Part shown: positions 39,439-64,000 of the stretch, one piece after another
Position numbering within the stretch: position 1 is the first letter of the stretch
Layout: each line of letters starts with the position of its first letter
Source of the DNA: Octopus sinensis
Lineage: Eukaryota
DNA length: 64,000 nt
Assembly (NCBI RefSeq): GCF_006345805.1
Contig: NW_021832412.1
Location: 1-64,000 of the forward strand
Direction: 5' to 3'
Translations under genes and position numbers: made by a program
Notes under the pieces: model-generated
Seen by the model: only the letters and a program-made list of their open reading frames with translations
Databases searched by the model: none
Told to the model about the DNA's origin: nothing

Positions 39439-39894
39439 TGCGTGGCTGCGTGGTAAGTAGCTTGCTTGCCGACCACACGGTTCTAGGCTCAGTCTTACAG
39501 CGTGGCATCTTGGACAAATGTCTTCTACTATATATTTCTTTACTACCCACAAGGGGCTAAACATAGAGGGGACAAACAAGGACAGACAAAGGGATTAAGT
39601 CGATTACATCGACCCAGTGCGAAACTGGTACTTTATTTATCGACCCCGAGAGGATGAAAGGCAAAGTCGACCTCGGCGGAATTTGAACTCAGAACGTAAC
39701 GACAGACGAAATACCGCTAAGCATTTCGTCCGGCGCACTAACGTTTCTGCCAGCTCGCCGCCTTTGTCTTCTACTGTAGCCTCGGGCCCTCCAAAGCCTT
39801 TTGAGTGGATTTGGTAGACTGAAAGAAGCCCGTTGTGTATATGTGTGTGTGCGTGCGTGCGTGTGTGTGTGTGTGTGTATGTGTGTGTGTGTGT

Positions 39895-40126: not shown

Positions 40127-40472
40127 TATATATTGAAATACAAAATAAAAACACAAACCATCCACTGGTATTATTCCATCTGAGGCTGCAAAGTGACAGA
40201 ATTGTTACTGCACCGGATAAAATGCTTAGCGGCATTTCTTCCGGTTTTCCGTTCTGAGATATTGCTGCTGAGTTTGACTTTGCCTTTCGCCCTTTCAGGA
40301 TCGTTGAAGTAAGTACCAGTCCAATACTGGAGTCGATGTAAGCGACTAACCCCCAACCCCAAAATTTCGATCTTTGCACCTACAATAGAAAGGGACAATT
40401 TCTTCTAACTTCATTATTTTTAGCTTTAAAAATTTTATATATATACATATATATACATATACATATATAATA

Positions 40473-40502
<30 letters not shown>

Positions 40503-40508
<6 letters not shown>

Positions 40509-41193
40509 TTATCGCCATACTAATATGGCATTCTTATAAAAATAAGAATAAAGCTGACCGCTATTAGCTCCATGAGGCCATCGCCTTAAGTTAGCTATTT
40601 GATACACAAACTGTATCCATATAACCTTTGAACAAGGGAGGTCAGTCGCTCCACACTACTTGGCCGGCAGCTACAGACGCGTTTCGGGGTATTGCCCCTT
40701 TTCAATGCAGCGTAGCCAGACCTGTAGGTGTCGCTTCTGACAATCTCTGTTCAAAGGTTTTATTTACCTAGCTTCGGTGGAATACATCCACTTGTTTTCA
40801 ATAATAGAAATATTAAAATTACTAAGTCTCTCTAAAAGAGAACAACGGCCGCGTTCCCGAAAATATTAGTTATCGCCATACTAATATGGCATTCTTATAA
40901 AAATAAGAATAAAGCTGACCGCTTATTAGCTCCATGAGGCCATCGCCTTAAGTTAGCTATTTGATACACAAACTGTATCCATATAACCTTTGAACAAGGG
41001 AGGTCAGTCGCTCCACCCAGTTTGTGTATCAAATAGCTAACTTAAGGCGATGGCCTCATGGAGCTAATAAGCGGTCAGCTTTATTCTTATTTTTATAAGA
41101 ATGCCATATTAGTATGGCGATAACTAATATTTTCCGGGAACGCTGCCGTTGTTCTCTTTTAGAGAGACTTAGTAATTTTAATATTTCTATTAT
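40503..41193 (-). mobile_element. Penelope-pLTR / retrozyme-like element: partial tandem (361-bp period) plus inverted copy, in (TA)n
   Basis: Direct repeat 40503-40655 / 40864-41016, inverted repeat 40801-40975 / 41018-41193, hammerhead motif at 40670-40711. Confidence 0.75.
40670..40711 (-). ncRNA. Minimal type I hammerhead with a U3-A8 variant core
   Basis: Reverse complement GCTGCA-TTGAAAA-GGGG-CAATA-CCCC-GAAA-CGCG-TC-TGTAGC. Confidence 0.7.
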
Positions 41194-41298
41194 ATATATA
41201 TATATATATATATATCAGAAAATGATTTATGCAGACTTTACTTCTCTATTTTTGCATGTGTTTTTCATATTTATTACATATTTTCTTATATTTTTCAG

Positions 41299-41397
41299 AA
41301 CGACCGTACATCTCTTCATTTAGCAGCCGACAATGGTTGTATAGAAGCTGTTCTCAAATTAATTGCCATGAAATGTGATATCCATATGAAAGACAAG
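41299..41397 (+). CDS. ANKDD1A: ANKDD1A/B-like ankyrin-repeat protein, internal exon (NDRTSLHLAADNGCIEAVLKLIAMKCDIHMKDK)
   Basis: Acceptor tttttcag, donor gtgagt, 99 nt, phase 0-0, one ankyrin repeat. Resembles the human ANKDD1A repeat ending GCDHNVKDK (recalled). Confidence 0.9.
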
Positions 41398-41539: not shown

Positions 41540-42860
41540 CACATCTACTTTATAGTCAATACAGCCTTTTGTAACAGTTCTACTGGGCAATCTGTTCCGA
41601 TTTCCTTTATATTCCACTTGATGCCTTCTGATACTGTTCCCAAGGACCCAGCAATAATTGTCACTATCTTCATCTCCTTCATTTTTCGTAGCCGGGCTAT
41701 TTTGTACTTAACGGGGTTGTATTTATCTATTTTTGGTCTTCGTTCTTGGCTATTCGTGAGTTAATGCGACATGCAACATCAACTATATAGCACATGTGGT
41801 ACGTCTTATTTCTTTATTGCCCACAAGGGGCTAAACATAGAGAGGACAAACAAGGACAGACAAAGGGATCGACTCAATTACATCGACCCCAGCGCGTAAC
41901 TGGTACTTAATTTATCGACCCCGAAAGGATGAAAGGCAAAGTCGAACTCGGCGGAATTTGAACTCAGAACGTAACGGCAGACGAAATACGGCTACGCATT
42001 TCGCCCGGCGTGCTAACGTTTCTGCCAGTTCGCCGCTTTCTTCTGCCAGTTCGCCGCCTTCTTCTGCCACTTCGCCGCCTTCTTCTGCCAGTTCGCCGCC
42101 TTCTTCTGCCACTTCGCCGCCTTCTTCTGCCAGTTCGCCGCCTTCTTCTGCCAGTTCGCCGCCTTTTTTCTGCCAGTTCGCCGCCGTTTTCTGCCAGTTT
42201 GCCTCCACTACGTCCGGTTTCTTGTACTCTAGCACCTGATCTCTTTGGATTGAGTAATCCCAAAGGATTTTACAAGTCTCTAACTGCTCGACTCTTTGCG
42301 ATTTGTGCTCATATCACGTCTTGCCTCTCTTTAGCCCCACTTTTCGCACAGTTTCCAATGTAGCAGTTTCGCTACCTGATCGCGTCGCTACAACTTGTAA
42401 TGGTTTGGGGACAAGTCTAGGGCGTTCGTTCGTAACTTGGGAAATGGTTTCTTCTACTCTATTACAGATGCGGCACAGCGACGAAGACACTTGCTCATCC
42501 CTAAAGTTAACCCTCCAATTCGTGGCCAAAGCTTGGTCTTGCGCTGCTAGTATAGTGCTCTCAGTTTCATTTTTTCAGTGTTCCATTCTTCAGCCAATCT
42601 CACCTGTGTTTTCCAGCAGCTTCTGTTCTGGCTACATGGAATTGTTTGTATTGTCCCTTCTTGCGTAATGCTTCTTCAAGTCCTTTTCGTACTCTTTCCT
42701 TCATTTTTCCTTTCCTCTCTGCTCTCAATACTCCCTCGTTCCCTAACTATCATTAGCAAGGTTTCCTTACTTCAGGCTTAGTATCTCATTAAGCTCTCGT
42801 GGTCGATACGCACGCAGTCTTCCACACAGCCCCCTTCCTTCATTTGTTCACTTCATATAT
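41540..42860 (-). mobile_element. R4/Dong-type RLE LINE 3' portion in an intron, interrupted by a SINE
   Basis: ETESTILAAQDQALATNW...CRICNRVEETISQV...KPDVV | DVAC...KIDKYN...IIAGSLGTV. The 5' end lies next to (ATT)n. Confidence 0.88.
41806..42206 (-). mobile_element. SINE family A with a tandemly amplified 5' end
   Basis: Normal body 41806-42040, about 9 copies of a 21-bp head unit over 42020-42206. Confidence 0.9.
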
Positions 42861-63349: not shown

Positions 63350-64000
63350 GTCAGAGAAGTAGCCTTTAACTATCAGAGTTATGTTTCACCATCAGTTCAA
63401 TATATACCTTCTCTTCGAAACAACAAACTATCTTCTATACTTAGGTGTATGTATGTATGTATGTATGTATGTATGTATGCATGCACATGTGTATGTATGG
63501 ATGTATGTATGGATGTATGCATGTATGTATGTATGTATGTATGTCTATCTATCTGTCTGTATGTATGTATGTTTGTATGTATGCATGTATGTATGTAGTG
63601 TACATGTAGCTGAACAAAGAAACGTTAACCTGTGTGACTGTCTGTCTGTCTATAAGTCTGTATGTATGTATGTTTGTATGTATGCATGTATGTATGTAGT
63701 GTACATGTAGCTGAACAAAGAAAAGTTAACCTTTTCCTAGTACTTGCGGTTGGAATGTGAGGTAAAGACAGTATGATTGCATTCTTGTTTCTGTTGTAGG
63801 ATGCAATATTTTAAGCGATATTTTAACAGAAGTAGCTAACCTAGATGTTATGGGTATCAAATAGCTTATGTTACCAATAGGCTCTTGAGAAAAACTATCA
63901 AATTAGGAACAGCAAGATTCCAACTGTTTTAAAGGAATAGTTATATTAAAAATACTATTGCAACAGATTTCTATTTACTTTCTTACACAGGGTTTGGAGG

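Follow-up and report, generated by a model that had tools for sequence, protein, structure and literature searches.

Our analysis of a 64,000-nt window of Octopus sinensis DNA (the whole stretch examined, from contig NW_021832412.1) revealed a plus-strand ankyrin-repeat gene with 99-nt exons at 41299, 44251, 56734, 57558, 62229, and 63251, and, upstream of the exon at 41299, an intronic insert at 40502–41193 (Table 1). In minus-strand sense, the insert comprises 1.43 tandem units and an inverted arm. The directly repeated segments, 40502–40654 and 40863–41016, differ by a single indel at a period of 361–362, and the inverted arm at 41018–41193 is one substitution and one indel apart from 40801–40975, with a loop of 42 nt. 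The arms meet 5′-to-5′, so that both 3′ ends face outward, and any target-site duplication is masked by the (TA)n target. These results bear out most of the architecture in the original prediction, which had placed within (TA)n about 1.4 near-identical units, fold-back arms of about 175 bp with a 42-nt loop, small hairpins in the unit, and one minus-strand hammerhead, the whole ending about 105 nt before a splice acceptor: tracts are present on both sides, arms and loop are recovered by alignment, the hairpins are present as described, the hammerhead lies at 40710–40671 with a predicted cut after 40676, and the acceptor AG ends at 41298, 105 nt past the insert. The proposed unit length of 361 bp holds for the period at this locus but not for the family, whose unit is 362 nt; the base missing here is present in 95 of 97 full units.

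Table 1. Features of the insert and its immediate surroundings, in window coordinates.
Feature	Position	Strand	Remarks
(TA)n target, left side	40436–40501		
Arm with end A at 40502	40502–41016	−	154 nt of 5′-truncated unit plus full unit 40502–40862
Imperfect long stem	40619–40763	−	Predicted fold; hammerhead at tip
Type I hammerhead, U3-A8 core	40671–40710	−	Core 40705–40699, stem II 40698–40686, palindromic helix III 40682–40677
17-nt site of Tx1-like LINE	40722–40738	−	Unoccupied here; one private mismatch; 46 nt 5′ of ribozyme cut
62-nt tail, internal copy	40801–40862	−	Sites A to B
Head-to-head (5′-5′) junction	41017		One extra base
Arm with end B at 41193	41018–41193	+	Final 113 nt of unit plus 62-nt tail (41132–41193); no hammerhead
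(TA)n target, right side	41194–41215		
Host exon, 99 nt, AG...GT	41299–41397	+	One ankyrin repeat; outside element

What can such an insert do in its present position? The sense unit is predicted to form a highly self-paired RNA (−126.3 kcal/mol, z −6.06, equaled by 0 of 100 shuffles). The suggestion that a circle of about 361 nt could be produced fails for this locus, since a single hammerhead cannot make the two cuts that release a monomer; as it is also antisense to the host pre-mRNA, it would not cleave the host transcript either. The insert is a dead-end copy of a 362-nt repeat family, likely of retrozymes, and probably a neutral passenger in the host intron. The 175-bp hairpin at 40801–41193 lies within the host pre-mRNA, 105 nt upstream of the acceptor, and is a possible editing substrate; the pyrimidine tract at acceptor 41298 is intact. 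Another dispersed repeat flanks the insert, with direct copies at 39533–39769 and 41807–42044 (90%) and an inverted copy at 40183–40341 (76–79%), the copy at 41807–42044 continuing into a 21-bp minisatellite (42020–42203). A weak 39-nt match to the tail region of the unit at 63919–63957 (79%, E 0.005) is perhaps an old fragment.

The hammerhead of the insert combines stem I CUGCA/UGUAG, a UUGAAAA core, stem II GGGG-CAAUA-CCCC, GAA, and helix III ACGCGU. An Rfam search, even at E ≤ 10, left this hammerhead undetected because its core is UUGAAAA, of U3-A8 type, and not CUGANGA. Our reading of the core derives from comparison with older subfamilies, after which its interpretation as a broken CUG..GA was rejected. 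Of the locus-variants in the family, 154 could be parsed and 20 could not; among the former, the core reads UUGANAA in 150 and helix III is palindromic in 145, taking the forms ACGCGU, ACUAGU, ACAUGU, and ACCGGU. Across 43 aligned sequences, 94.6% of cells are paired and 53 two-sided changes occur, with slid controls at 46% or below, although these counts are inflated by kinship among the sequences and the rows were selected for the core motif. The canonical C3-G8 core of retrozymes is absent, the family core being its U3-A8 variant, and the motif has a 2-bp palindromic helix III, which sets it apart from the minimal, helix-III-less type; minimal type I hammerheads had been cited for Penelope-like elements in the original prediction. 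A U3-A8 core with a small palindromic helix III is known from Penelope hammerheads (PMC4209133). The palindrome appears to be maintained through double changes, as cleavage within a dimer would require.

The genome surveyed, of 2.72 Gb, contains many copies of the unit. Used as a query, the unit retrieved 981 candidates; the 40 loci scored are all 96–100% identical and mostly multimeric. Exact matches across the genome number 831 for end B and 87 for the young end A (the two insert ends are defined below), each with TA following, and 1,413 for a 21-nt unit site. An older subfamily of about 77% identity (1,786 candidates) has the same ends, with intermediate subfamilies in between, the subfamilies being 76–99% alike. 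The 362-nt unit is non-coding, has about 41% GC, and forms arrays of up to about 10 units; the median insert in a position-ordered sample is 405 nt. Young units diverge by about 1.3% between loci and by 0.5% between the arms of one locus. The earlier view of a young, multicopy, retrozyme-like family is thereby upheld: the suggested copy-number and ORF-linkage search found a family that is neither single-copy nor tied to a Penelope ORF, with no RT plus GIY-YIG ORF within the unit or attached to it at 165 of 166 loci. The Penelope-type partial tandem and inverted structure that had been claimed is likewise supported; the fixed insert ends and the site-specific LINE described below were not part of that prediction. 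A different repeat, short, flanked by (TA)n, and bearing a hammerhead-like motif, occurs at L437:205–425 and lies beside several retrozyme copies; it has two short motifs in common with the unit (best E 0.05). Searches of the open-access literature on octopus hammerheads returned nothing on the 362-nt family.

Copies of the family end at two fixed sites. End A corresponds to unit position 361–362 and end B to position 62 of the next unit, 62 nt further on. Among the top 40 loci, classified by script, 28 pair A with B and none pairs A with A or B with B; one more has a gap between the arms. In a sample anchored on A ends (60 of the 69 loci outside the first set), 45 face B and 0 face A, 11 are without inversion, and 4 end elsewhere. 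Anchoring on B (72 ends at 70 loci, including two pairs that resemble local duplications and two loci that repeat the first set) gave 44 that face A and 0 that face B, 24 without an adjacent inversion, and 4 ending elsewhere. Combined, the anchored samples contain 89 A–B pairs and no same-type pair, whereas a free choice of site at each end would give about half same-type pairs. Flanks are (TA)n or AT-rich, a property for which the anchored ends, selected with TA, were chosen and the opposite ends were not. Partial tandems with an inverted, 5′-truncated copy are present in the top set and in both anchored samples. At one locus outside (TA)n, L043, the insert is bounded by a repeat of about 11 nt.

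The 62-nt A–B interval, which occurs at one end only, is a Penelope "tail," a segment of 30–40 bp that is often found at a single end of these elements (Craig et al., PMC8557442). In an anole Penelope element, the tail is delimited by a pair of adjacent internal RT starts, extension takes place on both target strands, and the enzyme is predicted to be a dimer; in vitro, insertion proceeded without need of the hammerhead, and neither start site was preferred by one strand (Frangieh et al., PMC11167929). The accessible portions of the Penelope literature (PMC8557442, PMC11167929) hold no description of strict A–B pairing, and a literature search for Penelope together with twin priming found nothing relevant.

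The junctions and lengths of the arms bear on how the inverted copy arises. Arms overlap at their junction by 1–8 nt in 69 of 120 cases. Snap-back self-priming of one cDNA, in place of priming at both DNA ends, would account for this short microhomology as well as for the haplotypes shared between arms that are described below. A copied arm cannot exceed its model, however, yet the longer arm is A in 17 and B in 11 of 28 loci; the shortest copies (e.g., L133 and L212) have arms that do not overlap, and self-priming offers no reason for strict A–B pairing. We regard self-priming as very improbable. Returning to priming at two fixed sites, B arms that stop within the tail on the first pass do so at positions 22–31 in 10 of 10 cases. 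On later passes, 29 stops lie between positions 9 and 61, 28 of them at 13–39. Both sets of stops point to a roadblock, likely a hairpin or the bound protein.

Which element supplies the enzyme? Given that every structural mark is Penelope-like, one may consider the unit as the pseudo-LTR of an unfound autonomous Penelope element, with the copies as its 5′-truncated remnants. Xenopus retrozymes do resemble pLTRs (bioRxiv 10.64898/2026.07.22.740005), and at one locus, L044, the broken ORF of an old Hydra-type element is joined directly to the unit. The 29 closest other copies of that element continue into sequence other than the unit, for which reason it was rejected as the parent. In addition, multi-unit arms consist of pure unit sequence, and a Penelope protein match lies near 6 of 166 loci, adjoining the insert at L044 alone. 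Such remnants are thus a distinctly improbable origin. Twenty further Hydra-type loci are decayed and lack similarity to the unit, and Neptune families show no alignable similarity to it (best E 0.05); among the 20 Hydra-type and 9 Neptune-type loci examined, of thousands of candidates, no Penelope element has a terminal repeat alignable to the unit, a search that also covered the 3′ ends of 30 more Hydra-type matches. Old Hydra-type copies with long Asn-rich linker expansions (L386–L405) were encountered among 19,587 candidates. The 362-nt family is likely a variant of the non-LTR retrozymes that behaves like a Penelope-mobilized element, and not an autonomous Penelope element.

A search for GIY-YIG domains identified a young Penelope family with an intact 781-aa RT plus GIY-YIG frame and a Neptune-type CxxxxCxxC linker. 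The four copies examined (L436–L439) are all 98–99% alike and terminate in (TA)n, and their hammerhead, with a UUGAUAA core and an ACAUGU helix III, is of the same U3-A8 type as that of the unit. We consider this family a candidate mobilizer, and a candidate only, because it is without alignable similarity to the unit. The same family has an upstream overlapping frame and carries its hammerhead 3′, and in a second family (L441 and L442) the core is of CUGAAGA type and helix III reads AGUACU. Penelope elements have been proposed as mobilizers of metazoan non-LTR retrozymes (PMC7229834; bioRxiv 10.64898/2026.07.22.740005), the latter study arguing for the partnership in vertebrates from co-occurrence and pLTR similarity.

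The copies also carry a record of their template. When arms of the same locus were compared over 107 young loci, at the 14 columns that are polymorphic, they agreed in 579 of 586 comparisons, with 7 disagreements seen where 174 would be expected by chance. The ribozyme site is crossed by 166 of 289 arms; 50 of these 289 contain at least two sites, in consecutive hammerhead units of a kind absent at 40502–41193, and the maximum is 7. Only 12 of 228 5′ stops fall within 10 nt of the ribozyme cut, about 13 being expected if stops were spread evenly, so stops do not cluster there. The site-spanning arms and the lack of a stop excess rule out a cut linear monomer as template.

Among rare variants that every copy within a locus carries, 11 of 16 are sense A>G changes, whereas the figure for variants confined to a single copy is 11 of 191 (p 4e-9), a bias that we read as a mark left at the RNA level. 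Much of this signal comes from one array, L178 (C1:152572000–152578000), without which the fixed fraction is 3 of 8 (p 0.013). Each unit of L178 repeats the same eight private changes, all of them sense A>G and preceded by U or A, and two of the eight hit the hammerhead. A U or A as 5′ neighbor is the preference of ADAR, and judging from this context the L178 template was likely ADAR-edited. Alternating variants in L061, L167, and L178 (in L178 at one site) point to duplication at the DNA level, such that the number of units in some arrays overstates the passes of the reverse transcriptase, and the L178 signal comes down to three edits common to two passes. Neither inversions nor editing come up in the available parts of a retrozyme review (PMC7761336).

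A rival template would be a linear multimer that stays uncut, is transcribed from a master array of homogeneous units, and is copied by the same enzyme from the same start sites, with the hammerhead acting late or rarely. It would account equally well for the tandem arms, for haplotypes common to both arms, and for the fact that stops do not gather at the cut. It would also fit an array of about nine units at C1:169359779–169362703, among the matches listed, which mixes A and G alleles and is unexplained by a single monomer template, and it agrees with the dispensability of hammerhead cleavage for the anole element (PMC11167929). In Xenopus, 8 of 9 predicted retrozyme dimers failed to cleave (bioRxiv 10.64898/2026.07.22.740005). 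Nevertheless, variants private to a locus, most of them A>G, are repeated on each pass and in both arms, and independent units of a multimer should not share them; arms extend through as many as 7 ribozyme sites, and covariation across subfamilies shows that the dimer-type helix III is constrained. We therefore hold a linear multimer to be unlikely, while according it more weight than self-priming or a pseudo-LTR origin. The combination of a shared haplotype with arms that run through ribozyme sites favors one circular template as the reading of these genomic copies, and between a circle and an uncut linear multimer we would put the odds at somewhat better than two to one for the circle. Circular RNAs have been demonstrated for retrozymes of coral, mussel, and axolotl (PMC7229834). 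No run that is on record as RNA was listed as containing the sequence. Contigs of three sequencing runs guessed to be RNA and of one other cover 30 of 30 bins and the head-to-tail joint, a type of coverage that cannot reveal RNA, its level, or a circle.

In conjunction, these observations lead us to the explanation that we prefer, to which we assign a probability of roughly two in three: the insert is a copy of a young 362-nt hammerhead repeat, likely a retrozyme, that was copied from one probably circular RNA into (TA)n by a Penelope-type RT-endonuclease, the two cut DNA ends being primed at two fixed RNA sites 62 nt apart. Arrays of at least two units would be transcribed, and their hammerheads, paired through the palindromic helix III, would excise monomers that a host ligase could close into circles. 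A dimeric Penelope-type enzyme would hold the tail region and cleave both (TA)n strands, and short AUAU/UAU matches would let synthesis of one cDNA begin at A and of the second at B. Both cDNAs would travel in the same direction round the template, often for more than one lap, and stall mostly at unit positions 13–39. Joining of the cDNA ends by short microhomology would then yield the head-to-head hairpin.

The unit itself serves as a target. Five A-anchored loci carry the same young 5.35-kb LINE inside the unit, with a zinc knuckle in ORF1 and APE, RT, and zf-RVT domains in ORF2 (PF00098, PF03372, PF00078, and PF13966). The nearest solved structures are those of LINE-1 ORF2, the nearest named homolog is from Argonauta hians, in agreement with the cephalopod origin assumed in the original prediction, and none of the 120 homologs listed is a named Tx1 reference. 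We take this L1-group element to be Tx1-like. Searches with the termini of the LINE itself, free of any target letters, located 36 of its 3′ ends and 37 of its 5′ ends. Among the junctions fetched first, 29 of 30 at the 3′ side and 30 of 30 at the 5′ side lie at one unit site, 46 nt 5′ of the ribozyme cut; with further copies, the tally is 41 of 42 young 3′ and 35 of 35 young 5′ junctions, the remaining two 5′ ends belonging to sister-group copies. This share exceeds the published criterion for target specificity, more than 20% of flanks in one target (PMC4494074). The duplication is 17 nt long in 16 of 17 loci (one shows a mismatch inside it), and at all 17 of 17 it agrees with the A/G allele of its surroundings. 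About 40 of about 1,450 exact sites are occupied, clustered in a few arrays.

Nearly all copies of the LINE are full length, and three loci hold arrays in which LINE and unit together repeat every 5.72 kb, as might be expected had the LINE landed once in the unit and the composite then spread as cargo, or were the LINE itself the mobilizer of the repeat. We give either version very little credence. The LINE occupies several repeat haplotypes, including a 94% subfamily, with a duplication that tracks the local allele; 5′-truncated copies (69 bp at C11, and another at C18) finish at the same site; LINE–duplication–LINE tandems occur at two loci; no inversion point lies inside the LINE among the mapped loci; and the repeat ends in (TA)n without poly(A), unlike the LINE junctions. 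At C3:72.50–72.53 Mb (L320–L323) we observed an inverted array with five full-length LINEs, one per consecutive unit. Four of the five were compared and are 7–17 substitutions apart, three of them matching another copy elsewhere equally or more closely, and two neighboring copies have a variant otherwise unseen. Truncated copies, tandem re-insertions, use of several haplotypes, and unlike copies within an array together speak for independent insertions by a target-specific LINE.

Where might this specificity have come from? Sister copies of the LINE, of 86–95% identity, lie outside the repeat, and those of 92–95% identity have U1 snRNA sequence at their ends. The 3′ end of one (L418) abuts a whole U1 gene (RF00003), the 5′ ends of two (L337 and L417) start with U1 bases 1–17, one of them within a U1 cluster, and three others are succeeded by ATACTT, the first letters of U1. 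A cluster of U1 snRNA genes with sister-group insertions lies at C15:28.98–29.18 Mb (L414–L433). Modest but coherent evidence suggests that the sisters target U1 with the same 17-nt geometry. No concentration of change was seen in the endonuclease, which is 95% identical, like the RT. We infer that the LINE switched from U1 snRNA genes to the repeat. Tx1-clade LINEs aimed at other transposons or at U2 are known (PMC4494074). In the open-access literature searched, we found no LINE aimed at a retrozyme; nor did we find a Tx1 element with a U1 target, the accessible accounts reporting U1 targeting only for Dada DNA transposons.

We tentatively speculate, at slightly less than even odds, that the parts form a three-layer system, in which the template is a hammerhead RNA circle and the copying enzyme a Penelope-type dimer, each RT site using one fixed start on the same circle, while a LINE that recently switched from U1 would be the first described transposon aimed at a retrozyme. 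Repbase may already contain the retrozyme and LINE families. In the literature, the origin of tandem and inverted Penelope insertions and of their one-sided tail is an open question, and the copying of retrozymes from circles by Penelope enzymes is still a hypothesis. The octopus family supplies hundreds of natural products that follow a strict rule (one A, one B, and one haplotype) together with a defined 62-nt RNA element, and the model of two start sites on one template thus becomes testable in vitro. The two LINEs have different 17-nt targets although their endonuclease domains are 95% identical, and represent a compact natural case of target switching.

How does this system relate to those already described? 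Like the metazoan non-LTR retrozymes (PMC7229834; bioRxiv 10.64898/2026.07.22.740005), the family has a non-coding tandem unit of 150–450 nt with a GC content under 50%, a single type I hammerhead in each unit, and a stable fold, and is without LTR features. It differs in its U3-A8 core, theirs being C3-G8, and in consisting of dispersed short inserts, mostly inverted and with two fixed ends; fixed ends, inversions, and a LINE that targets the unit are absent from the available portions of the retrozyme accounts. For metazoan retrozymes, circles have been demonstrated, whereas the octopus family is known from its genomic copies. With the Neptune and Hydra Penelopes and the anole Poseidon element PAc (PMC8557442, PMC11167929, PMC4209133), it shares partial tandems, a head-to-head inverted copy, a tail at a single end, a (TA)n target, and a U3-A8 hammerhead with a small palindromic helix III. 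Unlike the Neptune and Hydra elements, it has no ORF, and its tail is 62 nt where theirs is 30–40 nt; its A–B pairing is strict, whereas PAc showed no start-site difference between strands in vitro (PMC11167929). MRC1-type elements of Chlamys (PMC8557442) are likewise non-autonomous, Penelope-mobilized, and multicopy in head-to-tail arrangement, but their 3′ end resembles that of the autonomous partner and they are mostly without hammerheads.

The placement of the octopus LINE in the Tx1 clade is a label that we presume from its sequence. Its APE and RT ORF2 and zinc-knuckle ORF1 recall Tx1L inserted in Tx1D, Keno in U2, and Tx1-Mar in Mariner-N4 (PMC4494074), which also target a multicopy RNA gene or mobile element and undergo tandem re-insertion. 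The octopus LINE differs from these in that its target is a hammerhead retroelement, and in having near-identical sisters tied to U1 snRNA.
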